From Candidatus Thalassarchaeaceae archaeon (lineage in GTDB: Archaea; Thermoplasmatota; Poseidoniia; Poseidoniales; Thalassarchaeaceae): DNA of 64,000 nt. The stretch lies in the NCBI GenBank assembly GCA_030749075.1, contig JASMKR010000004.1, forward strand, positions 15,232-79,231. The letters are read 5' to 3'. Position numbers and translations under genes: made by a program. A model generated the notes under the pieces. That model was given only the letters and a program-made list of their open reading frames with translations, did not search any database and was not told the DNA's origin. Shown here in pieces: positions 3,053 through 31,143 of the stretch. Within the stretch, counting starts at the first letter, position 1. Every line of letters begins with the position of its first letter.

Positions 3053-4069
3053 CTACTCGTTTGAACGGGAAGCAATCTTCGCTTCCTCGACCTGAGTCTC
3101 TGGAGCCTCCTCAACGGTTCCCTCCGTCAGAGGCGGACTTCGTTGAGCCCTGTGGTAAATCTCCCTCAGGGTCTGGTCGGTAATCTCCAGATATATGCGG
3201 GTGGTCGCTATGCTGGCATGTCCCAGCAGACGCTGGATGGTTACTAGATCGGCCCCTCGCTCGAGCAGTCCTGTTGCGAAGGTGTGCCTGAGGGTGTGCG
3301 GACTGAGCCGACTGCGCGGAATGTCGGCGGAATCAGCTAGACGATCCATCATCTTCTGAATCGAACGCGGGTTGATGCGCCTGCCTCTGCTCGACAGGAA
3401 CAGGGCTCTTTGATCCTCATCGTTGCTAATCGACAGCCTAGAAGCCCTGATTGGCCCCCAGGCCTCTATCACCTTAACCGTGGATTGGGTGAACAGCACA
3501 GTGCGATCCTTCTCTCCCTTGCCGCCGATCACGAGGGCCGACAGGTCCTCGGTGTCGATGTCATCGAGGTCTAGCCCGCACAGCTCGGAGACCCTCAGAC
3601 CGGTGTCCAAGAGAAGCGTGGAGATCGGGAGGGCCAGAGGGTCTTCGGAATCGCGAGTGGCCCGCCTGAGGCGCTGGAGCTCCTTTCTGCCAAGCGTCTT
3701 CGGCAGCGAGCGGCTTCTTGAAGGACGCTGAATCCAGTCCGGTACCGTGTGGCCCAGCCACTTGAGGAGATGGGAGACAGCAGCGATCTTGGCGTTGATA
3801 GTGGTGGGCTTCAGATCTCCCAGACCGTTCAGCCAGGCGTCCATTCTCCCATTGTTCGGATCCGATCTCATGTGGAAGGAACTGACCGGGAAGCCCCTAA
3901 CTTCACTCCAGTCGAATGACGGCTCCCTCGGCAGCCGAGTGGTCGAGAATTCACGCGCGGCAACTCCGTACGCCCTGATCGTGTGACTGCTCTTCTTCTC
4001 AGAGCGGAGCTGCTGCATCCAGCAGTCATGCCAGGAGAGTTCCGAAATCCTGTGCAACCTCGATGGCAT
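3053..4069 (-). CDS. xerA: tyrosine recombinase XerA-like (phage integrase family)
   Basis: C-terminal catalytic region ...LSPHTLRHTFATGLLERGADLVTIQRLLGHASIATTRIYLEI (HxxR...GH...Y) and an N-terminal SAM-like core-binding region (SSHTIRAYGVAAREF). The track ORF reaches 4165; I start at MPSRLHRISEL (4069), which is uncertain. Confidence 0.85.
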   Translation of the reverse strand: MPSRLHRISELSWHDCWMQQLRSEKKSSHTIRAYGVAAREFSTTRLPREPSFDWSEVRGFPVSSFHMRSDPNNGRMDAWLNGLGDLKPTTINAKIAAVSHLLKWLGHTVPDWIQRPSRSRSLPKTLGRKELQRLRRATRDSEDPLALPISTLLLDTGLRVSELCGLDLDDIDTEDLSALVIGGKGEKDRTVLFTQSTVKVIEAWGPIRASRLSISNDEDQRALFLSSRGRRINPRSIQKMMDRLADSADIPRSRLSPHTLRHTFATGLLERGADLVTIQRLLGHASIATTRIYLEITDQTLREIYHRAQRSPPLTEGTVEEAPETQVEEAKIASRSNE

Positions 4070-4308
4070 CGAGTTGTGCAGCCCTATCTCGTCAGCGCCG
4101 AACCTACGACCGAGCCTGCCTGTGTCTGCTCCGGCCCCCGGTCCGTCTGCGCTATCCCGCTGCAAAGTAACTCGCCTCCCGCCGCGAACGGCGCGTGCAT
4201 CCCTGTCCTAATGGACGAGGGCAAGGAGGCACCTCGGGACTTGAATGCTTCTCCAACCAAAACGAGAGAGACGACGTTAGCAAGCGTTCCGTTTCGCGCC
4301 GAATAGCC

Positions 4309-5277
4309 TCAGTAAGCGTCGGAGAACTCGCCTGACTCGGTTCCGCGGTCATCGGACTGACCCAGCCCCTGATCTTCTCGAACAATCTCCAATCGAATGT
4401 TCAGATGCTCGGCCACCTTTCCGGCTACGTTGACCCCGGTAGCGCCTTCAATGCCCTCCAGTCCCGGGCTTGAGTTGACCTCCAGAATCAGAGGTCCCCG
4501 CTTGGACTCGAGCATATCCACCCCAGCGAGGTCGAGTCCCAGCGTTTCGGTCGCTTGGACGGCGATTTCCTTCTGCCTCGGGGTTAGCTCGACCTCGTCG
4601 ACCGAGCCACCTAGGTGGAAGTTTGAACGGAACTCGTTGCCGTGAGCCTTGCGACGCATCGAGGCGACGACCTCACGCCCGACCACGAAAGCACGGACGT
4701 CTTGGCCGTGGGACTCCTCGATGTACTCTTGGACCAAGGGCCTCATCCCGCGTTCCAGCATTTGGTAAACCAATTGCCTGGCTTGCTGCTCGGAGCGTAC
4801 TAGGTACACTCCCGATCCATGCGTCCCCTCAGTGGACTTGACTACACAGGGGGTGCCACCGACGCGGCTCACCGCACGGCCGGTGTCCTCCCAAGCGCCG
4901 ACGTGCGCTGTGATGGGGACGGGCACGCGCTTCTCGGCCATCATCTGGCAGGCAACCAGCTTGTCACGACTCCTGACGATGCCGTGGCTGGGATTGAGTA
5001 CGATGGTCCCCATCTGCTCAAACTGGCGCACTATGGCTACTCCTCTGCGGGTGATGGAGTATCCAATCCTAGGAATGATGGCTTCACACTCCACTGGCCA
5101 ACCCCTGTGGAAGATCCTACCTCCCCTCTCATCGACCACGATGGTGAGGGTGAGCGGGTCTATGATCCGAACAGACCACCCAGCCTTCTCAGCCTCGGTG
5201 GCAAGCCTCCTCGTGCTGTAGAGTTCGGGCCCCCGGGACAGCACCACCAGCCGAGGCTCCATGAAATGCGCCGCCAT
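4309..5277 (-). CDS. rimK: RimK-type ATP-grasp alpha-L-glutamate ligase
   Basis: Colinear with E. coli RimK as I recall it: LVVLSRGPELYSTRRL...IIPRIG...SRDKL...VVKSTEGTHGSGV...LVQEYIEES.GQDVRAFVVG...FRSNFHLGG...GVDMLES.RGPLILEVNSSPGLEGIE. Start at ATG 5277 (MAAHF) or 5262 (MEPRL). Confidence 0.85.
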   Translation of the reverse strand: MAAHFMEPRLVVLSRGPELYSTRRLATEAEKAGWSVRIIDPLTLTIVVDERGGRIFHRGWPVECEAIIPRIGYSITRRGVAIVRQFEQMGTIVLNPSHGIVRSRDKLVACQMMAEKRVPVPITAHVGAWEDTGRAVSRVGGTPCVVKSTEGTHGSGVYLVRSEQQARQLVYQMLERGMRPLVQEYIEESHGQDVRAFVVGREVVASMRRKAHGNEFRSNFHLGGSVDEVELTPRQKEIAVQATETLGLDLAGVDMLESKRGPLILEVNSSPGLEGIEGATGVNVAGKVAEHLNIRLEIVREDQGLGQSDDRGTESGEFSDAY

Positions 5278-5394
5278 GGGATTGCCCTTCAACTCTTTGC
5301 CCCGAGAAAACGGGCATTGCTCTCGAGTGCTTGCCTGCGGGTCCGTGACGCCGAAGGGGTTGAAAGCCGCGGCTTGGGACTGCACACCGCTAGC

Positions 5395-7566
5395 ATGGCC
5401 GGAGACGATTCACTCGACCGCGAGACGTTGTCATCGATGACAGTGGCGGAACTGCGAGATGCCTGCAAGGAGAGGTCTCTATTTGTCTCAGGCAATAAAT
5501 CCCAGTTGGTTGACCGGATTTTGGAGGATCTCGGCGGCGAGCCTGAGCCCAGCCAGCCCGAAGCGGTCGACGCCCTGATAATGGACGAAGGCCCCTATGA
5601 AGCCGGCGATTCGAATCCCCCTGAGGTAGAATCCGAGAGGACTGAGCACGCTGAGGCCGCGGAGCAACTGATTGCAAGACTGAGCAAGGAGGACCAAACC
5701 GAGGAGACCGCGGACGAGGGCCCACGGTGGGGGGACGAGTCAGCGGAGGCCGAGGTATTAGAGGCCGAGTTAGTCGAGCCCGAAGCAGAGATCGTAGCCA
5801 AGGCTGCTGAGCCCACATCCCCCAGCGATGCTCCCGAGGAGGACGCAGCCTCCTTGGTCATCACCATCCCGACCATAACCTCTCTGGGCGAGCGGTGGCA
5901 GACTGTCGCTTCCATCGCTATCGTTGTGCTGCTCGTCGGAGCGCTGGCGACCCAAGTCCTGCAACGCAACTCTGGATTCTCTGCAAGGTCCCTCCACTAT
6001 GGAGACCAGATGGACTTCTACGTCAGCGAGTCGACCATTACCATCCAGGGGGATGAGATGCTGGGCCTAGTACGGGACTCCGCAGACAGCATACTCGACG
6101 AGGCCTGTGGGCAATTGACAGCGGTGATGTCCGGAACGGGGCAAGTCGCGATTTCCCAGGGCAGCGAAGACGGTGCTTCCCCCACCTCCGACAGCCTTGG
6201 GAGGGACGGGTTCCTAGCGGTTGAGAAACGACTCTCGATGAATCTGGACATCGACTTCGAGGGCAAGACTTGGAGAAATCCCGGCGATTGCGGCAATGTC
6301 GGTTGGTCGCTGTCCGACAATAAGATGGCCCTGGACTCAACCAGTTGGGTTGAGCTGGAAGACCGGGATTCGAAGCGCTCGGACTCCATCATCTCGTTCA
6401 CGGACATCGACTCCCGCTCCACCAACCTTCGAGCGGTGACCTACGGGTTCGATGGCTTCGGTGGGCTAGGCACCATTCTGCCCACCCTCGCCTTCCCGAT
6501 GACTCCCATAGAACTGCGCGCGTTCTTCGATGACGAGGTGCTGGTGGCCGGCGCCACCTCCTCTGACATTTCCAACTGGAACTCCGAGTGGTCTTGGGAG
6601 GTCAAGCCGGAGATCTCCCACGAGACCCACGGCCTAGTGTACCCAATAGAGATGCATCACGAAGACATAGGCCAGTGCTACGGACACGCCTACCTAAACA
6701 TCCTCGTAAAGCGCGACAGTCCGTGGCCAGTCGAGCAGGTAGCCGACATAGTCTTCGACAAGAACCTGAGGACCAATGACTGCAACTTCCTCGTCAGCTC
6801 GCTGTCGGAGGAACTCCTCCCCGAGGGCAGGATGTCGGTCTCGATGACGATGTCGAAGAGTTCCGGCTTGTCCGGAAGCACGGAGGTCGACTGGGGCAGG
6901 GACTACCTCAAGCCGAAGGCGGGCGAAGACCAGCCGAGCTCCTCCACGGAGCGAAACTGGGTGGATGCGATGTGGGACGAGTCGGAGATCAGGCCCTTCG
7001 ATCTCGAGGATGCCATCGCGTGCCTGAAGGCCAACCACTCGACTAGCGATGCGGCGATGGCTATACTCGATGGCGGCTACTTCTGGCAGGGCCAGTGGTC
7101 TCAGCCCACCGGAGCACCCGAGTGGAATCTGTCTTGGGTTGACGAAGACGACCGATCGGGGTGGCTCGTGCTGCGCTCGACGGACTCTGGAGGTTGCAAT
7201 GCAGTCGAGCAGGGCTCGAATGACGACGGAGAAGTAATTTGGAATCGGGACGCCATCCCGAGTACGCAGACGATGGCACTGCTGGAAGGCAGGATCCTCA
7301 ATCAGGCCCGATACCCGGATTTGCAATCCGAGATTGCCACCGCAGGAATCTGGCATTCCGACGCAACGGTCGGCTACCGGCTCTCGGTATCGGAGGACAC
7401 CCAGCTGTTCAGCTTCCTACCAGGTGACCTCGGTGAAGGGAAGGTTACCATGACTGCCGGCAGGGACTGGAACGAAGGGGGAAGGGATCACTCGATCGAC
7501 CTCGCCATGGACTCGGAGACTGGTGAGATGGTGACTTGGTACCACATCGACCGTCCCGCCGAGTGA
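5395..7566 (+). CDS. SAP-domain single-pass membrane protein with a large extracytoplasmic domain
   Basis: The track ORF begins at 4819, but its first 192 codons are antisense to rimK; ATG 5395 gives MAGDDSLDRETLSSMTVAELRDACKERSLFVSGNKSQLVDRILEDL, a SAP helix-extended-helix motif. An acidic linker of about 130 aa follows, then one TM helix (WQTVASIAIVVLLVGALATQVL) and a Trp/Asp-rich domain of about 520 aa. Confidence 0.7.
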   Translation: MAGDDSLDRETLSSMTVAELRDACKERSLFVSGNKSQLVDRILEDLGGEPEPSQPEAVDALIMDEGPYEAGDSNPPEVESERTEHAEAAEQLIARLSKEDQTEETADEGPRWGDESAEAEVLEAELVEPEAEIVAKAAEPTSPSDAPEEDAASLVITIPTITSLGERWQTVASIAIVVLLVGALATQVLQRNSGFSARSLHYGDQMDFYVSESTITIQGDEMLGLVRDSADSILDEACGQLTAVMSGTGQVAISQGSEDGASPTSDSLGRDGFLAVEKRLSMNLDIDFEGKTWRNPGDCGNVGWSLSDNKMALDSTSWVELEDRDSKRSDSIISFTDIDSRSTNLRAVTYGFDGFGGLGTILPTLAFPMTPIELRAFFDDEVLVAGATSSDISNWNSEWSWEVKPEISHETHGLVYPIEMHHEDIGQCYGHAYLNILVKRDSPWPVEQVADIVFDKNLRTNDCNFLVSSLSEELLPEGRMSVSMTMSKSSGLSGSTEVDWGRDYLKPKAGEDQPSSSTERNWVDAMWDESEIRPFDLEDAIACLKANHSTSDAAMAILDGGYFWQGQWSQPTGAPEWNLSWVDEDDRSGWLVLRSTDSGGCNAVEQGSNDDGEVIWNRDAIPSTQTMALLEGRILNQARYPDLQSEIATAGIWHSDATVGYRLSVSEDTQLFSFLPGDLGEGKVTMTAGRDWNEGGRDHSIDLAMDSETGEMVTWYHIDRPAE

Positions 7567-7636: not shown

Positions 7637-8590
7637 ATGACATTGTCCGAGGACAGCGGAGAACTTCCTCAGGTTAAGGCCGCTCCACTAGTTCTGGACG
7701 TAGAGTTCACTGAGGTCGAGGACGAGACTCTCGCACCCCCCTTGAATGCCGTCGACGAGATCAGCACAGCCAGAGCACGCCGCCCGATGGAACTGCCAGC
7801 TTCGTTGCCCACGCCATCTGGTAGGGCCCGCGTGGTCACAGTGACCAATCAGAAGGGTGGCGTCGGCAAAACCACCACCGTGATCAACATCGGAGCCCAA
7901 CTCGCTTTGAGGGGCCATAAGGTCCTAGTGGTCGACTCGGATTCGCAGGGAAACTGCGCGACCGGGATGGGCGTGGACAAGAGCAGGGTCAGGGCCACCA
8001 CCAGAGACCTCATCCTGAGTCCCGAGACGGCAGTCGACTCGCGACACGCCACCGCAGTGGACAACCTGCACATAATCGTTGGAGACAGGAGCCTGATCGG
8101 GCTCGAGCAGGAGATGCTGAGGCAGCTCGGCCGCGAGAGGCGCATGAAGGAAGCCCTCGAACCCCTCCTGCCCCACTACGACATCGTCCTGATTGACACG
8201 CCCCCCTCCCTCGGCCTCGTCACAATCAACGCCCTCGTGGCCTCGGACGGGGTCCTCATCCCAGTGCAGACGGAGTACTTCGCACTGGAGGGGCTGGCCC
8301 TCCTTGCCGGAACAATCAGGGAGGTCAGGAGCCTGCTGAACAAGAATCTGGGCGTGGACGGCGTAATGCTGACGATGCACGCCCAGACCCTGCTCAACCA
8401 GCAGGTCGCAGGTGAGTTGCTGGAGACCTTCCCGGACCTAGTGGTCAAGCCGGCCATCAGGAGAAATGTCAGGCTGGCCGAGGCACCCAGTCACGGCGTC
8501 CCAATCCACTTGCACGACCCATCGAGCGCAGGTGGTCAGGACTACCAAGCAATAGCAACTGTTCTAGAGCGCCGATGGGGCCTTGTATAG
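7637..8590 (+). CDS. parA: ParA/Soj-family partition ATPase with an acidic N-terminal extension of about 65 aa
   Basis: Deviant Walker A VTNQKGGVGKTTT, then VLVVDSDSQGN, IVLIDTPPSLG and VLIPVQTEYFALEG. Start is ATG 7637 or the in-frame GTG at 7622. Confidence 0.9.
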   Translation: MTLSEDSGELPQVKAAPLVLDVEFTEVEDETLAPPLNAVDEISTARARRPMELPASLPTPSGRARVVTVTNQKGGVGKTTTVINIGAQLALRGHKVLVVDSDSQGNCATGMGVDKSRVRATTRDLILSPETAVDSRHATAVDNLHIIVGDRSLIGLEQEMLRQLGRERRMKEALEPLLPHYDIVLIDTPPSLGLVTINALVASDGVLIPVQTEYFALEGLALLAGTIREVRSLLNKNLGVDGVMLTMHAQTLLNQQVAGELLETFPDLVVKPAIRRNVRLAEAPSHGVPIHLHDPSSAGGQDYQAIATVLERRWGLV

Positions 8591-8591
8591 G

Positions 8592-9566
8592 ATGGCGGAG
8601 CGGGGGCTCGGCAGGGGCTTGGGCTCCATGGCGGAACTCTCCGAAAACACTCCAGACCTATCTGGTTTCGTGACATCCGAGGACACTCACGCTTTGGGTG
8701 ACACGGGGTCGGCCAAGGCAGCCGTGGTGTGGATGCTCATTGGCAGTGCGGCCTTCGGCGCCATGAACGCCATGGTCAAGTGGACTGACGACTTCGATAT
8801 CGGGGTCCCGACCGTCATCATGGTACGCAGTGCGGTTATTGCCGGTCTGGCCTTCGCGTGGGCATCCGTTAACTCACGTACTCTGAGGATAGTGAGCCGA
8901 AGGAAGATGATGCTGCGCTGCACCACAGGGCTTGTCGCCATGTTCTGCTACTTCTACGCCTTGCAACGCATCCCCATCACGCAGGCCGTATCCCTGCAGT
9001 TCACCGCCCCCCTATTTGTCGCCCTGCTTTCGGGCAGGGTGCTCAAAGAGAGGGTCTCGCCGTGGGTAGTAGTCTGCGTGGCAATCGCCTTCGTCGGCGT
9101 CGCCCTGATCATCTCCCCTAGGTTAGGCGAGATCGAGCCCAACGCGTTATTCGCTCTGGCATCGGGTTTCCTCGCCGCCATGGCCTACATGTACGTCAGG
9201 GACCTCAGGTCGACCGACTCACCCACTGGGGTTGTGTTCTGGTTCGCAGCCTTCTCCACGGTGGTCAGCCTGCCACTTGCGATACGGGAGACCGTAACCC
9301 TGGGAGCAGAGGAGATGCTAATCCTGATTGGCGTGGGTTTGGGTGCGGGGCTGGGACAGGTTGGCATCACCATGGCCTACCAGCAGGCGAAGGCAGCCTG
9401 GATTGCTGCGTTCTCCTACACAACCGTACTGGTGGCCTCCTTCTTCGGCTGGTTATTCTTCGACGAGGTACTGCTGATCGACGATTACATCGGGGCACTG
9501 CTCATCATCGGGACCGGGGTCGCCCTGATTCTTATGACCCCACAGAACGCCAGAACCGAGCCCTAG
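8592..9566 (+). CDS. EamA/DMT-family 10-TM transporter carrying a ParB-like N-terminal peptide
   Basis: ATG lies 1 nt after the parA stop. N-terminus is MAERGLGRGLGSMAELSE (ParB/Spo0J N-terminal LGRGL motif). Ten hydrophobic helices follow in two EamA-like halves. No HTH or ParB-box domain. Confidence 0.8.
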   Translation: MAERGLGRGLGSMAELSENTPDLSGFVTSEDTHALGDTGSAKAAVVWMLIGSAAFGAMNAMVKWTDDFDIGVPTVIMVRSAVIAGLAFAWASVNSRTLRIVSRRKMMLRCTTGLVAMFCYFYALQRIPITQAVSLQFTAPLFVALLSGRVLKERVSPWVVVCVAIAFVGVALIISPRLGEIEPNALFALASGFLAAMAYMYVRDLRSTDSPTGVVFWFAAFSTVVSLPLAIRETVTLGAEEMLILIGVGLGAGLGQVGITMAYQQAKAAWIAAFSYTTVLVASFFGWLFFDEVLLIDDYIGALLIIGTGVALILMTPQNARTEP

Positions 9567-9598: not shown

Positions 9599-10585
9599 TC
9601 AGGACACGCTGCCGAGCGACTGGATAGTGATCGAGCCGCCCATGCTGCCGTGGTTCTGGCAGTAGTAGTACAGCGTGTCGGGCGCATCAAGCGGGACCGT
9701 GAACGTCAGTAGCCCGTCCGAGCCCTGAGTACCTGTGCTGGTGACGCCGCTCGTGTACTGGGTCCCGCCGCCGTGAGTGCCGTCGCTCGTTGTGGAGAGG
9801 CGGAACGGGTGTGGCGAGTTACTGGAGTCCGACTGGTCGAAGGTGTAGGTGAAACCTCGGTAGAGGACGATGTCCCCTTGCTGAATCCCATCGACTAGAA
9901 ACTTCATGCTCGAGACTGTTATCGTCATTTCCATGACAGTGGGCATTGAGCCCTGTGGGCCCTCGGCCCCGTCGGCACCATCCGCCCCGTCGGCCCCGGC
10001 TGCCCCCTCGAGCCCTTGGGACCCAGTCACCCCAGCGACCCCCGGAGGTCCCGAGATGTTTCCGAGGTCGATCCACTCGGAGCCGCTCCACACATGGATG
10101 TGGCTGGTGGATTGGACGAGGAAGCCATCCCCCTTGTCCCCGACGTAGATCTCGCCTAGCTCTGAGGTGTCCTCGACAGATCCGACTATGGTGAACGAGG
10201 TGCCATCGGCCCCCGCTGGCCCTGGGGGCCCTTGCGCCCCCCCAGGTCCCGCTGCCCCATCGGCGCCTGCCGGCCCCTGAGTGCCGTCTGCACCGTCGGC
10301 GCCGGGGGGGCCTGCCGGACCGGTCAGGTCAATCGTCATCCACGCCATTCCCGAGCAGGCCTGAAAGCCCGAATGGGATGCGACGTAGTACAGACGACCG
10401 TCGGTCGTCGAGTCGCAATCCGGCAGGTCCGATGCGCTCTGGACCAGGAACACGCCCCAGTCCTCGAGTTCGTCGGGGGGGTCCGAATCCGAATCGCTCT
10501 CGGATCCAAGGCACCCGGACAGGGCGCAGGCGGTCATCAGCATTGCAAGTAGTAAAGTCAGGGGCATCTGACTAGATTTCTTCAT
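9599..10585 (-). CDS. lipoprotein with two collagen-like Gly-X-Y tracts and a C-terminal cupredoxin-like domain
   Basis: Signal and lipobox: MKKSSQMPLTLLLAMLMTACALSGC. Gly-X-Y runs: GPAGPPGADGADGTQGPAGADGAAGPGGAQGPPGPAGADG and GPPGVAGVTGSQGLEGAAGADGADGADGAEGPQG. The C-terminus has ...SPHPF...LYYYCQNHGSMGGSITI, a C-x2-H-x2-M spacing as in amicyanin-type blue copper sites. Confidence 0.75.
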   Translation of the reverse strand: MKKSSQMPLTLLLAMLMTACALSGCLGSESDSDSDPPDELEDWGVFLVQSASDLPDCDSTTDGRLYYVASHSGFQACSGMAWMTIDLTGPAGPPGADGADGTQGPAGADGAAGPGGAQGPPGPAGADGTSFTIVGSVEDTSELGEIYVGDKGDGFLVQSTSHIHVWSGSEWIDLGNISGPPGVAGVTGSQGLEGAAGADGADGADGAEGPQGSMPTVMEMTITVSSMKFLVDGIQQGDIVLYRGFTYTFDQSDSSNSPHPFRLSTTSDGTHGGGTQYTSGVTSTGTQGSDGLLTFTVPLDAPDTLYYYCQNHGSMGGSITIQSLGSVS

Positions 10586-11311: not shown

Positions 11312-11863
11312 TCAGTCACGTCGAGACATGAACGCTGCCATCGCCAGCGATGCAGCACCGAGGGTGGCACCGAATCCCGGCAGACCCCCCTCCTCCTCTT
11401 GGCACGGAGCATCGGAACCGCCCCACTGCCCACTGTCCGCATCATACCAGCAGGTCGACCAGACCTTCCAGCCGAAACCGGTCTCCGGCACGGATGAGTC
11501 GTTGCCCTCCGGCCAGTAGAGCTCAATGCGCCAGTTGACGTAGCTGGCCTCCTCGTCTACGGCGATGGAACCGGTCCAGAGCCTGCTGTCGGAGTCCGGA
11601 AAGAGCGCACTCGTCTCCGGCGGGTAGCAGACGCCCGAGTTGATGCAGACTTGGGTGGTCCAGCCCACTTCGGTGCCATTCGATGCGGCGGCGGCATCGA
11701 GCTCGACGGTGATAGCGAAGTCCTCGTTGGCAACAGCAGCATCGGCGGTCACCACCGAGACCAGCGAAGTGCCATCCAGGGCGGGCGACTCGTTGGTACC
11801 GCCCTCCGCCCAGACCGAGGTCATCGCGAGAACGAGGACCGAGAGAACCACTATGGCCCGCAT
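11312..11863 (-). CDS. secreted surface protein with a PGF-CTERM archaeal sorting signal
   Basis: N-terminal signal MRAIVVLSVLVLAMTSVWAEG. C-terminus EEEGGLPGFGATLGAASLAMAAFMSRRD, i.e. a PGF tripeptide, a TM helix and a basic tail. Confidence 0.7.
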   Translation of the reverse strand: MRAIVVLSVLVLAMTSVWAEGGTNESPALDGTSLVSVVTADAAVANEDFAITVELDAAAASNGTEVGWTTQVCINSGVCYPPETSALFPDSDSRLWTGSIAVDEEASYVNWRIELYWPEGNDSSVPETGFGWKVWSTCWYDADSGQWGGSDAPCQEEEGGLPGFGATLGAASLAMAAFMSRRD

Positions 11864-28092: not shown

Positions 28093-28752
28093 TCATCGCT
28101 CAGGCAGTCCCTGCCGTTCCATCCTGGCAAGGGGGCCTGTGGGTCGGAGAATGGTCTTGGCCGTGCAGTCCTTGGACTCGTGGCCTATCCTCTTGCATCT
28201 CGCGCAGATGACGTTCTTGAGCATTAGATGCCTGGTGTTCCTCCTCTTGGCATCCTCTGCAGTCATCTCCCTTTCGGGCTTGATTACCGTCTTCGAGCCG
28301 TCTGGGTGGACTTTGATTACCGTACCGTCCTTCTTCTTGGTGCGGCCCACGACCTTCTTCCCCTTCGACCTCCTCTTGGGCTTGGGCTTCGGTCGATAGA
28401 CCCACGACTTCTTGGTGATGGTGACCCCATCGACGGTGGTCTTGTTGCGGCAGCTGGTACGGATATGGCCCGGCCTTCCGCACCTGCCGCAGGTTACTTT
28501 CCTCTTCGTCTGGATGTATGGCCCCCCTCGCACCTTGCTGGCGCCATGCTTCTTGATCATGCGCTCAGCGATTTTCTTCTCATCGGATTTCTTCACGTTA
28601 CTGAGGTAACTGACGACCCGCTTCGGCTTGTGCTTTTTCGTCCACTTGGCCTCCTTGCCCAAGACGTGCTGCTTCAGCCTCCTCTCGCCGTCGGCAGTCC
28701 TCCCGACGTAGTAGTTGCCGCCCTCACATTCGAGAACGTATACGTCCACCAT
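28093..28752 (-). CDS. GIY-YIG nuclease-domain protein with two CCHC zinc knuckles and Lys-rich linkers
   Basis: VYVLECEGGNYYVGRTADGERRLKQH...KW is a GIY-YIG N-terminal motif. CGRCGRPGHIRTSC and CARCKRIGHESKDC both fit C-x2-C-x4-H-x4-C. The track ORF extends to 28794; I prefer ATG 28752 (MVDVYVLE). Confidence 0.7.
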   Translation of the reverse strand: MVDVYVLECEGGNYYVGRTADGERRLKQHVLGKEAKWTKKHKPKRVVSYLSNVKKSDEKKIAERMIKKHGASKVRGGPYIQTKRKVTCGRCGRPGHIRTSCRNKTTVDGVTITKKSWVYRPKPKPKRRSKGKKVVGRTKKKDGTVIKVHPDGSKTVIKPEREMTAEDAKRRNTRHLMLKNVICARCKRIGHESKDCTAKTILRPTGPLARMERQGLPER

Positions 28753-28869
28753 GGTATTCCGAGGGAAGCCACTCCGGATTATATTGACCCTCATCGGTAA
28801 GCAATGGGATTGTAGGACTGAGGTCAGATGAGGGGCTCCGCTTCTTGATCTGTCTGAAATTACTCTCAG

Positions 28870-30084
28870 ATGAGGCCGAACTCACGCTGGTTCGCCACTT
28901 CAATAGTCCTTCGAAACCGTGTTTATCGCCCGATTTGGACCCTCCGCTCTCAAATACCCCGAAACGCGCGTAGACTTGGGGATGGGCACTTGAGTGAGAG
29001 CAAGTCACCGGATGCGGACAATGCCGAGGGCATCGACGAACTCGATGCGATTAGGGCCCAGCACGCACGCTCCTCCTCTGGGACGCCTCACTCTTCGAGG
29101 GCACGGGAGCGTTTGGATGAGGAGTCGAACCTGCGATCTGGGATACGAAGGGAGCGCAGGATGCGTATCGCGAAGATGACCGAACGGGTCTCGGGGATGC
29201 ACGGTGCGATGAGGAAGGCCAACGAGATACTCTTCGAGGAGCAGCTCCAGCAGATCGAGGCCGATCTCAGGGACGAGCTCGAGGAGGAGCTCGAGAGGCT
29301 GGAGACGGAGGCGCTGGAGCGCGAGGAGCGTCTGCTGCGCGAGGAGATGCTGCACAGGCTGCGCCGCGAGGAGAACAGGCTAAGGGAACAGCTCGACTTG
29401 GAGAGGGACCGCAGGGTGGAGGCTCATTCCACCAAGGTGCGCGACCGGCTCCGAGAGGAGATGGAGGTCGAGTTCTCTAGGAGGAGGGCCTTCCTCGAGG
29501 AGCGCTTGGAGCTCGAAGCCTCACAGAGCATCGAGCGCATGGAGCGAAGGGTCCAGATGGACCTGCGCGAGGCGATGGAGTCCCAGGTTCACAGGAAGTT
29601 GGATGCCCATCGCCTGGACCAGGAGATCCAGATGCGCAACAGAATCGCCAAGAAGCGAAGGAAGCACGAGTCGAAGTTAGAGAAGCAGCTCGAGAGCGAG
29701 CGCGAATCGCTGGAGAAGGAGATGACCTCAGACATCGATGAGAGGACCAAGGCGCTGGAGGAGGAGGCCGAGCGGGCAGCGCTGGGCGAACTCGATCGCA
29801 GGTTCCGTACCGAGCGCGAGACCATGGAAGCGGCTCTGGCGCTACGACGACAGGAACTCGCCCTGGAGCGCGAGGTCGAGATGGAGCAACGAGTAGCCGA
29901 CTTTGTCAAGCAGCGGGAGTCAGAGATGATGTCCAACCTCGAGAAGCAGCTCTCTAAGCGCTCCGACCTGTCGAAGAAGGAGGTCGGGGAGATGCTCAAG
30001 GCCATGGAGTCCGAGATCAGGGTCAAGATGGAGGCAGCCCTGCTGGACGCCCGACAGAGCGTTATGGAGAAATCCAACTCATAG
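28870..30084 (+). CDS. Glu/Arg-rich coiled-coil protein (start uncertain)
   Basis: About 300 aa of uninterrupted charged heptad-like sequence, e.g. EELERLETEALEREERLLREEMLHRLRREENRLREQLDLERDRR. No TM helix and no enzymatic motif. Later in-frame starts (TTG about 28992, ATG about 29161) are possible. Confidence 0.6.
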   Translation: MRPNSRWFATSIVLRNRVYRPIWTLRSQIPRNARRLGDGHLSESKSPDADNAEGIDELDAIRAQHARSSSGTPHSSRARERLDEESNLRSGIRRERRMRIAKMTERVSGMHGAMRKANEILFEEQLQQIEADLRDELEEELERLETEALEREERLLREEMLHRLRREENRLREQLDLERDRRVEAHSTKVRDRLREEMEVEFSRRRAFLEERLELEASQSIERMERRVQMDLREAMESQVHRKLDAHRLDQEIQMRNRIAKKRRKHESKLEKQLESERESLEKEMTSDIDERTKALEEEAERAALGELDRRFRTERETMEAALALRRQELALEREVEMEQRVADFVKQRESEMMSNLEKQLSKRSDLSKKEVGEMLKAMESEIRVKMEAALLDARQSVMEKSNS

Positions 30085-30240: not shown

Positions 30241-31143
30241 CTATGCTTCGTCAATCGCTCTTATCCTAGCATCTGCCTCCTTGGCGAAATCCCAGTATGC
30301 CATACTCGCGGGGTTGGATTTGGTCGGCTTCTGCGCGATTACGATAGGAGCTCCCTCCAAGGGCGACTCTGCGATTGCCACCGAGCGCGGTATCTGCGTC
30401 TCGAAAACCCTGTCACCGAAGTGCTTGCGCGCCTGCTCGGTCACTGCCTCACACAACTTGCTCCTCGACTGCACCATTGTAAGCAGGATTCCGAATAGCC
30501 CGAGGTCCGGGTTCACCGACCTCTGGACCTCCTTGATGGCGTTCATCAGTTGCCCCATGCCCTCCAAGGCGTAGAACTCGGCTTGGATCGGTATCAGGAC
30601 CCACTCGGCTGCGGCTAGGGCATTGATGGTCAGCAGCCCCAGTGACGCTGGTGTGTCGATGATGATTACATCGAAGGTCCCCAAGGCCTCCCGCAGGGCG
30701 AGCCTGAGTCGATTCTCCCTGCCCACCCTCGTGGCTAGGTCGACCTCTATGCCGGACAGGTCGAGGTCGGCGGGCAGGACCCAGAGGTTACGTATGGCGA
30801 TGTGCTTCGGGGGGCCGCGCTTTCTGTCCGGGTTGTGGCTCTTCCATGCCGCGTACATCGACCTCGTGAGGATCTCGGGCCCCAGAATGCAGTCGTCCAG
30901 CGCGAGCGAGTCGTCATCCAACCCCTTGGAGAAAAGCTCGTCCATGGTGGGCCCCACGTTTCGCTTGTCCACCCCGAAGGTAGTGGCTACGTTCCCCTTC
31001 GGGTCCATGTCGACCAGTAGCACCCTCCTGCGGCGGATTCCGTATTCGGTGCTTCCCATCGCGAGGGCGGAGGCGAGGTTGACCGCGGTAGTGGTACGCG
31101 AGCAGCCGCCCTTGTGGTTGACGCAGGCGATGACTATGGCCAC
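30241..31143 (-). CDS. ParA/Soj-like protein with a non-canonical Walker A (KGGCSRTT)
   Basis: GTG start. (M)AIVIACVNHKGGCSRTTTAVNLASALA, VLLVDMDPKGN, VIIIDTPASLG and VLIPIQAEFYALEG are colinear with the ParA at 7637. I checked the nucleotides: tgc tcg cgt acc sits where ggc aag acc is expected. Confidence 0.85.
   Translation of the reverse strand: MAIVIACVNHKGGCSRTTTAVNLASALAMGSTEYGIRRRRVLLVDMDPKGNVATTFGVDKRNVGPTMDELFSKGLDDDSLALDDCILGPEILTRSMYAAWKSHNPDRKRGPPKHIAIRNLWVLPADLDLSGIEVDLATRVGRENRLRLALREALGTFDVIIIDTPASLGLLTINALAAAEWVLIPIQAEFYALEGMGQLMNAIKEVQRSVNPDLGLFGILLTMVQSRSKLCEAVTEQARKHFGDRVFETQIPRSVAIAESPLEGAPIVIAQKPTKSNPASMAYWDFAKEADARIRAIDEA

Follow-up and report, generated by a model that had tools for sequence, protein, structure and literature searches.

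ParA/MinD ATPases serve as the general positioning engines of prokaryotes and draw their specificity from short peptides at the N termini of their partners. The chromosomal ParA, or Soj, proteins are those that pair with ParB proteins carrying the motif LG(R/K)GL, and all well-described ParA/MinD partners known to us are DNA-binding or soluble cargo proteins. The locus described here lies in a 64,000-nucleotide stretch of a contig from a Candidatus Thalassarchaeaceae archaeon (JASMKR010000004.1, assembly GCA_030749075.1; the whole stretch is called the window). In it, a gene for a ten-helix permease of the EamA/DMT family directly follows a bacterial-type parA gene, and the permease begins with a peptide resembling the ParA-binding N terminus of ParB. 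A sequence-only reading, made by a model from the letters of the window, had proposed that a membrane transporter carries a ParA-stimulating tag here, with a relic of a parB 5' end fused by recombination as the alternative. On the comparative evidence presented below it is probable, if well short of certain, that this tag binds and regulates the adjacent ParA, and that the permease is the membrane-anchored cognate partner of this ATPase.

In Myxococcus xanthus ParB, the ParA-binding motif is L11-G-R13-G-L15-x-x-L18-I19, in which each of the four hydrophobic residues is required for ParA binding and R13 for ATPase stimulation, and a 20-residue peptide suffices when DNA is present (PMC12462528). 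The pocket of M. xanthus ParA that receives the peptide has also been defined experimentally and comprises V116, L150, L152, L155, L187 and L192 (PMC12462528). More generally, the partners of ParA/MinD ATPases act via a disordered, positively charged N-terminal region that has the logic of a luggage tag (PMC10241942, PMC11407121), as described for archaeal HpaB (bioRxiv 10.1101/2025.11.19.689047). The known archaeal ParA partners, SegB, HpaB and AspA-ParB, are small DNA-binding proteins. In the searchable literature we found nothing on ParA or ParB in Poseidoniales (Marine Group II, MGII), the order to which the contig belongs, and no described case of an EamA or any other membrane transporter that bears a ParB motif. 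What is new is a canonical chromosomal ParB peptide on a polytopic transporter, conserved over most of an order-level archaeal lineage.

A ParB-type tag on a ten-helix permease

The permease gene (8592..9566, + strand, 324 aa, 557 database homologues) stands immediately behind parA (7637..8590, + strand, 317 aa). The parA stop codon TAG at 8588-8590 is followed by a single G at 8591 and the permease ATG at 8592, as the sequence-only reading had placed them, which forms a termination-reinitiation junction (8588..8594, + strand). The permease N terminus reads MAERGLGRGLGSM (in longer form, MAERGLGRGLGSMAELSE). Its residues 4-14, R-G-L-G-R-G-L-G-S-M-A (8601..8633, + strand), match a ParB-type ParA-binding motif with the pattern L6-x-R8-x-L10-x-x-M13, recognized from homologue conservation and from the ParB motif, and are referred to here as the tag. 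When the window is translated in all six frames, the string GLG[RK]GL turns up a single time, with 0.07 occurrences expected by composition. A second motif, P-D-L-S-G-F-V (8652..8672, + strand; family consensus (E/D)GPDLSS(F/Y)(V/I)), lies in the polar, acidic linker that completes the head of the protein (residues 1-38; 8592..8705, + strand).

Beyond the head, the protein is a DMT transporter. Pfam finds EamA alone in the open reading frame (ORF), in two stretches (E value 7e-25), and NCBIfam returns weak DMT-family matches only. An AlphaFold2 model built with 74 homologues has a mean pLDDT (predicted local distance difference test) of 85, with residues 1-38 below 50 and ten transmembrane helices spanning residues 41-315 above 90. 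These helices form the core of two EamA halves (8712..9536, + strand), the topology that the sequence-only reading had described, and the Foldseek neighbours of the model are the DMT transporters SLC35B1, Vrg4, YddG (5I20) and LicB. Because 15 Lys or Arg residues fall on the predicted inner loops and 2 on the outer ones, the disordered head is assigned to the cytoplasm by the positive-inside rule. The permease belongs to the EamA/DMT family, with two EamA repeats, ten transmembrane helices and both its N and C termini inside.

Neither the whole ORF nor its residues 1-63 showed ParBc (PF02195) or a helix-turn-helix (HTH) domain in Pfam and NCBIfam searches, and nothing meaningful was found in the head. 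The ParB HTH and C-terminal dimerisation domain are absent, residues 41-315 being the DMT fold. Because the defining ParB/Srx and HTH domains were searched for and are absent, the permease is not a member of the ParB family, in keeping with the earlier statement that the ORF holds no HTH and no ParB/Srx box.

The tag reproduces the L11, R13, L15 and +7 aliphatic (L18) positions of the M. xanthus motif and thus shares three of the four hydrophobic positions; the fourth (I19, at +8) is variable in MGII, being Y, A, S or T. Lys or Arg at positions -1 to -2 adds to the central Arg of the tag region. The permease has traits seen in partner proteins, namely a gene adjacent to that of the ATPase and a disordered, basic N-terminal peptide. 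In 7.3 Gb of plasmid records, a tblastn search with the consensus tag matched one site only, the N terminus of a Spo0J from Latilactobacillus, encoded by a gene that overlaps the end of soj. The likeness spans 16 residues (Spo0J GLGRGLDAVFSAFEGP, tag GLGRGLDEIYSKTEGP; in the fuller alignment, Spo0J MATRNGKGLGRGLDAVFSAFEGPNKN and MGII consensus MAKRGLGRGLDEIYSKTEGPDLSS). The E value of 3 is not significant on its own, but the protein, the end of the protein and the gene order all fit.

Conservation and loss of the tag across Poseidoniales

A scan with one genome per GTDB species yielded 80 loci, which come from metagenome-assembled genomes (MAGs), single-cell genomes and long-read assemblies of Poseidoniales, except for one contig binned as Acidiferrobacter. 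With flanks of ±6 kb per locus they amount to ~0.8 Mb besides the 64-kb window. In this unbiased sample a clean tag, defined as [GA]LG[RK][GSN][LIV] at permease residues 5-10, is present in 56 of the 80, a decayed one (VLGRNL, GLGMGL or GLGISL) in 4 and none in 20. In 79 loci the gene immediately upstream, on the same strand, is a Soj-type parA; the 80th ends without upstream DNA. The co-occurrence of tag and parA in orthologues, about which the sequence-only reading had asked, is therefore widespread. The same reading would have taken a tag unique to this assembly or absent from orthologues as refuting its proposal: the tag is not unique, but it is missing from a part of the species, which counts in part against the proposal. 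The gene order is identical even in a divergent tagless lineage from a TARA metagenome (L081), whose ParA is 65% identical. In a separate protein-database search, the tag was read in the 120 homologues listed of the 557, with identities down to 51%, and all 120 start M-x-x-x-(G/A)LGR(G/S)L.

These comparisons refute the explanation that the architecture is an artefact of assembly or annotation, caused by a chimeric junction, a frameshift or a wrong start; its chances are negligible. No sign in its support was found; the window is metagenome-derived and shares its second ParA-like protein with GCA_035092285.1. Different studies have yielded the same architecture in >50 MAGs, single-cell genomes and long-read assemblies that are independent of one another, and it is also present in hundreds of metagenomic protein clusters; the ATG stands exactly four codons ahead of the motif in 50 of the 54 loci used for codon analysis of the tag.

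Across these 54 loci, the residues G-L-G-R-G-L are invariant or nearly so as protein, yet are encoded by 4-6 synonymous codons per position. The residue at +7 from the first Leu is I, V, M or L in 54 of 54, the linker positions around the tag vary freely, and the tag is kept across lineages whose permease cores are ~50% identical. Since the residues are invariant and their synonymous codons are not, selection acts on the peptide rather than on an RNA or DNA signal at the junction. The tag is under protein-level purifying selection.

The codon analysis largely refutes the view of the tag as a functionless relic, a leftover parB 5' end joined to the transporter by recombination, which we regard as very unlikely. 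What speaks for a relic is the 16-residue resemblance to the Spo0J N terminus, placed where parB would begin after a bacterial-type parA, together with three losses of the tag and its decay in the four species noted above. A neutral remnant, however, would decay everywhere, instead of holding six residues constant amid a freely varying linker and diverging cores, and the pocket residues of ParA change only where the tag is absent. Of the relic alternative put forward in the sequence-only reading, a ParB-derived origin is likely to stand; the status of a relic does not, the tag being maintained by selection.

Outside MGII, the head disappears. An exhaustive HMMER survey of 1.8 billion cluster representatives yielded 12,083 EamA relatives, of which the best 149 outside the query's own cluster were inspected. 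The tag is absent from the 148 nearest non-MGII representatives, the sole carrier among the 149 being an MGII fragment, and the nearest non-MGII relative that was looked up has no parA neighbour. Because these relatives are without the motif, the head is taken to have been added to an ordinary transporter in MGII alone. In the 53 clean-tag loci measured, -4, -1, 0, +1 or +3 nt separate the parA stop from the permease start. Stop-codon readthrough that would fuse ParA to the tag is ruled out, as the relative frames differ between species.

The second linker motif is also conserved, with P21 and L23 invariant and D22 and S24 at least 90% conserved, 10-12 residues downstream of the tag. The consensus (E/D)GPDLSS(F/Y)(V/I) has no known counterpart and none in ParB; it disappears along with the tag in tagless clades and persists where the tag Arg alone is mutated. 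In five lineages (L037, L040, L043, L054 and L061 in our set), the key Arg or Gly of the tag is replaced (GLGMGL, GLGISL, VLGRNL and GLGRNL), with GPDLSSF and the ParA pocket still intact. These altered tags are possibly snapshots of ongoing loss, or else errors in the MAG consensus.

In none of the 80 loci does a further ORF of 60 aa or more have [GA]LG[RK][GSN][LIV] near its start, as a relocated tag would. Likewise, phmmer searches with Spo0J and Caulobacter ParB found no ParB in the six-frame translations of the window and the 80 loci, and Pfam scans found no ParBc in 37 window ORFs (parA, the permease and 35 others, nearly all of at least 200 aa). The earlier statement that the 64 kb contain no other ParB-like ORF agrees with these searches.

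The adjacent ParA and candidate roles of the tag

The ParA encoded next to the permease is of the bacterial chromosomal type (Pfam AAA_31, E value 3e-54). Among solved structures, its best-scoring relatives are M. xanthus ParA (8RAY; E value 3e-57, 42% identity), Thermus thermophilus Soj (46%) and Helicobacter pylori Soj, compared with an E value of only 1e-12 for archaeal SegA (7DUT). Comparison of ~120 orthologues makes ATG 7637 the most likely parA start, rather than GTG 7622 of the mechanically called ORF. The protein then begins with an MGII-specific acidic extension of ~50 aa (7637..7786, + strand; LPEV..APL(I/V)(I/L)DVEF) that is conserved in ~120 orthologues, in tagged and tagless lineages alike. 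MGII ParA is more conserved than the permease (78-95% versus 50-66% identity), and all 120 matches listed in a protein search are MGII ParAs, at least 77% identical. Among these 120, neither a bacterial donor lineage nor a parA-parB-eamA intermediate was found.

Catalytic residues of Soj, and some of those that bind DNA there, are kept in this ParA. The Walker A motif KGGVGKTT, K73, K78 and D102 (the D60-equivalent Asp) are invariant in 74 MGII sequences. Of the basic residues used for non-specific DNA binding (M. xanthus R238; H. pylori Soj K227, K230, K247 and K199), the two alpha9 positions are kept (RRNVR in the window), with R or K at the equivalent of M. xanthus R238 and H. pylori Soj K230; the equivalent of K247 of H. 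pylori Soj is Ser, and that of K199 is apparently not basic, as read from a pairwise alignment. Within the peptide pocket, alignment to 8RAY equates L192-G193-L194-V195-T196-I197 (8210..8227, + strand) with M. xanthus pocket residues L150, G151, L152 and L155. In MGII, L150, G151, L152, L155 (as Ile) and L192 are kept, as are E117 and E82 (as Asp) at the site that receives the ParB Arg. The pocket thus appears mostly intact and the Arg site partly so.

Loss of the tag is accompanied by specific changes in ParA. On a neighbour-joining tree built from ParA and the permease core together, all deep branches have the tag, and parsimony places its loss at three independent points. The tagless branches account for 17% of the tree length and for 18.6% of ParA substitutions, so ParA is not generally relaxed on them. 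Only 3 of 267 ParA columns, L194, I197 and D294, are fixed on tagged branches but changed at least twice on tagless ones. L194 (M. xanthus L152) went from Leu to Ile three independent times and I197 (L155) from Ile to Val twice, on tagless branches only, and the tagless TARA lineage L081 also has Ile at the L194 position. The residues of the segment L192-I197 are invariant in 54 tagged lineages. The same is true of D294 (codon 8516..8518, + strand; equivalent to H. pylori Soj D245 and M. xanthus D253), which has undergone five independent replacements, by E, Q, K or N, after tag loss. That two of the three coupled columns are among the six defined pocket residues has a hypergeometric probability of ~1e-3. 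This co-variation is modest evidence, though specific and in the expected direction.

Adjacency to parA, purifying selection, the motif match and the pocket changes together lend support to the proposal of the sequence-only reading that a membrane transporter may carry a ParA-stimulating ParB tag. Several observations weigh against it. Of the six M. xanthus pocket residues, two are replaced in MGII ParA, V116 by Q and L187 by E, the second change being found in T. thermophilus Soj as well. At the Arg site, Arg takes the place of the 'invariant' Tyr81, the residue in contact with ParB R13, and D110 is Ser or Thr. The co-variation rests on three losses, on the conservative substitutions Leu to Ile and Ile to Val, and on a neighbour-joining tree. 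D294 lies on the DNA-binding face, opposite the pocket and two residues before the DNA-contacting K247 of H. pylori Soj, which leaves its coupling unexplained. Free monomeric ParB peptides activate ParA far less than dimeric ParB clamps do, and DMT transporters are, to our knowledge, not known as dimers. The consensus tag matched no PDB sequence, and a profile of 31 tag sequences gave chance matches (E value at least 0.09) with no ParB chain among them; these searches tell us nothing either way, given so short a query and the absence of the N-terminal tail from most ParB constructs that have been crystallised. Finally, the 20 of 80 species without a tag keep a highly conserved ParA, the permease and the gene for an SAP-domain membrane protein upstream. 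The tag is dispensable in some lineages, and the ParA retained there must have a tag-independent role or another activator.

Some of these points would equally suit a head, GLGRGL with GPDLSSF, that is functional without ParA, either by binding another partner or through gating, insertion or turnover of the transporter, its ParB likeness being convergent or exapted. The three tagless clades retain ParA at 78-95% identity, GPDLSSF is lost along with the tag and lacks a ParB counterpart, the Tyr that contacts the ParB Arg in bacteria is missing, and the PDB search with the tag profile finds no ParB. We nevertheless hold this quite unlikely. The tag matches a mutationally defined motif residue by residue, including the +7 aliphatic position; the permease gene always abuts a Soj-type parA; the changes linked to tag loss hit two ParB-pocket residues; and relatives outside MGII have neither the tag nor, where checked, a parA neighbour.

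A further possibility is that the transporter is regulated or energised by ParA, on the model of ArsA and ArsB. The tag would then be a docking site by which the nucleotide state of ParA, or the state of the nucleoid, governs export, and not part of a device for positioning or segregation. Membrane proteins on which ATPases of the ParA superfamily dock are known (ArsA-ArsB, CapB-CapA), CapA1/CapB1 (4JLV) is among the distant PDB matches of MGII ParA, the highly conserved permease core fits a working transporter, and parA and permease are apparently translationally coupled. This arrangement seems distinctly improbable for a ParA of the canonical chromosomal Soj type that keeps its DNA-binding Arg/Lys, lacks a duplication of the ArsA kind and stays well under the NCBIfam cut-offs for transport-energizing ATPases. 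Moreover, as tagless clades keep both parA and the permease, any coupling to transport cannot depend on the tag.

On the favoured reading, in which the permease is the partner of ParA, the counterpart against which the ATPase works in MGII is probably the cell membrane and not a complex of ParB with DNA, because the permease gene is found directly behind a bacterial-type parA in every species checked. The first ~14 permease residues would be a ParB-derived ParA-interaction peptide, borne on a flexible cytoplasmic tether of ~25 residues ahead of the first transmembrane helix. ATP-bound ParA dimers would sit on the nucleoid, consistent with the retained Walker A motif and DNA-binding Arg/Lys; the tag would adopt a short helix, and permease R8 would promote ATP hydrolysis as R13 of bacterial ParB does. 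Since the activator is an integral membrane protein, each contact would tie nucleoid-bound ParA briefly to the membrane and then let it go. The outcome might be that the permease and its fellow travellers are distributed or positioned over the nucleoid, that the nucleoid is held and patterned against the membrane, or that a segregation device operates that includes the SAP membrane protein. We infer the physical binding, the ATPase stimulation, the nucleoid binding by ParA and the cell-biological output from comparison of sequences. As to origin, a Poseidoniales ancestor may have acquired a bacterial parAB operon, the body of parB then having been replaced by, or fused to, a DMT permease gene, with the peptide retained because it still engaged ParA.

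Neighbouring genes and comparison with described systems

Upstream of parA lies the gene for the single-pass membrane protein with an SAP domain (5395..7566, + strand; Pfam SAP PF02037, E value 2e-11, 43.6 bits). An SAP DNA-binding motif at the N terminus of the protein is joined by an acidic, disordered linker to a transmembrane helix at residues ~168-190, and a beta-rich ectodomain of ~530 aa follows; a juxtamembrane motif, SLVITIPTLSSLGxRWK, is conserved. The AlphaFold2 model of the ectodomain has a pLDDT of 68 and gave no PDB match at an E value of 1e-3 or below. The family has 63 database matches, nearly all with SAP, and all those with a named source are from MGII or Thermoplasmatota. 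In 76 of the 80 MGII loci, the gene that directly precedes parA, on the same strand, is a homologue; with parA upstream of the permease in 79, this makes a conserved unit of SAP membrane protein, ParA and (tagged) permease, and the SAP protein a candidate component of the ParA system. Loss of the SAP gene or of the ParA N-terminal extension along with the tag was considered and rejected, both being retained in tagless clades. The intergenic regions between rimK and the SAP gene and between the SAP gene and parA contain only short, chance-level repeats, and no centromere-like ones.

A bolder interpretation, which we offer tentatively and think unlikely on balance, is that Poseidoniales do without ParB-parS and segregate or position their chromosome by a three-part, membrane-anchored ParA machine. 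The SAP protein would tether DNA to the membrane, ParA would coat the nucleoid, and the ParB peptide of the permease would turn ParA over, so that the two jobs of ParB, DNA holding and ParA activation, would be split between two membrane proteins. If true, this would bring back in modern form the membrane-attachment (replicon) model of segregation.

Another ParA-like gene is present in the window (30241..31143, - strand; Pfam AAA_31, E value 9e-42), one that the sequence-only reading does not mention. Its Walker A motif is degenerate (KGGCSRTT versus KGGVGKTT), and its pocket segment, PASLGLLTINALA, resembles the bacterial one more closely than that of the first ParA does. The gene lies downstream of a MoxR AAA+ gene with no obvious partner gene, and an identical protein occurs in GCA_035092285.1. 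Beside it are a 404-aa Glu/Arg-rich protein that looks like a coiled coil and has no Pfam match (28870-30084, + strand) and a basic GIY-YIG protein with CCHC zinc knuckles (28093-28794, - strand). Just upstream of the SAP-parA-permease cluster are a tyrosine recombinase of the Phage_integrase family (3053-4165, - strand) and a RimK-type ATP-grasp ligase (4309-5385, - strand); 67 of 80 loci have the RimK gene beside the cluster. The gene directly downstream of the permease encodes a secreted or lipoprotein-like protein with collagen-type G-x-y repeats (9599-10585, - strand; Pfam Collagen, E value 1e-9) and is present in only 23 of 80 loci. Also near the cluster, in 57 of 80 loci, is a gene for a small secreted protein that bears a PGF-CTERM archaeal sorting signal (11312-11863, - strand).

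Should the favoured reading hold, the ParB luggage tag would be a transferable module that evolution has moved to a wholly different carrier, nucleoid-bound ParA could be wired to the membrane, and a still uncultured group that ranks among the most abundant archaea of the surface ocean would use a bacterial-derived ParA in a manner seen neither in bacteria nor in SegAB/HpaAB archaea. The idea is testable without MGII cultivation, and the tag-loss clades provide a natural comparison of ParA with and without its putative activator.

Set beside ParB itself, the permease has its peptide at the same place, an extreme disordered N terminus encoded by a gene that abuts or overlaps the end of a Soj-type parA. 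Unlike ParB, it has no ParB/Srx CTPase, HTH or dimerisation domain, and hence no parS binding, clamp or sliding; the archaeal peptide sits on a ten-helix permease instead. In McdB, PomX, TlpT/ParP, MinE, archaeal SegB and HpaB, a short disordered basic N-terminal peptide similarly links cargo to the ATPase, and the gene lies directly downstream of that of the ATPase. Those proteins are soluble or DNA-binding and have lineage-specific peptides of their own, whereas MGII combines the canonical ParB motif with a polytopic carrier. Likewise, in SegAB and HpaAB, ParA is followed by a small site-specific DNA binder of the ribbon-helix-helix or HTH type, and in MGII by the permease.

The EamA/DMT transporters YddG, RhtA and the SLC35 family share the ten-helix, two-repeat fold of the MGII permease, but its N-terminal head is peculiar to MGII (0 of the 148 nearest outside representatives). 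ArsA docks on ArsB, and the BY-kinase CapB is activated by a cytoplasmic peptide of the membrane protein CapA; in both pairs, as proposed here, a P-loop ATPase of the superfamily is engaged by a cytoplasmic segment of a membrane protein from the neighbouring gene. They belong to other subfamilies, however, have no ParB-type motif, serve in transport or polysaccharide export, and their ATPases are not nucleoid-binding. Noc, a ParB paralogue, reportedly recruits DNA to the membrane, keeping the DNA-binding body of ParB and gaining an N-terminal amphipathic membrane helix. There too a ParB-derived element couples the nucleoid to the cell membrane, as it may in MGII, but the architecture is the inverse: MGII has no ParB body, and its putative ParA-binding peptide is carried by an integral membrane protein.

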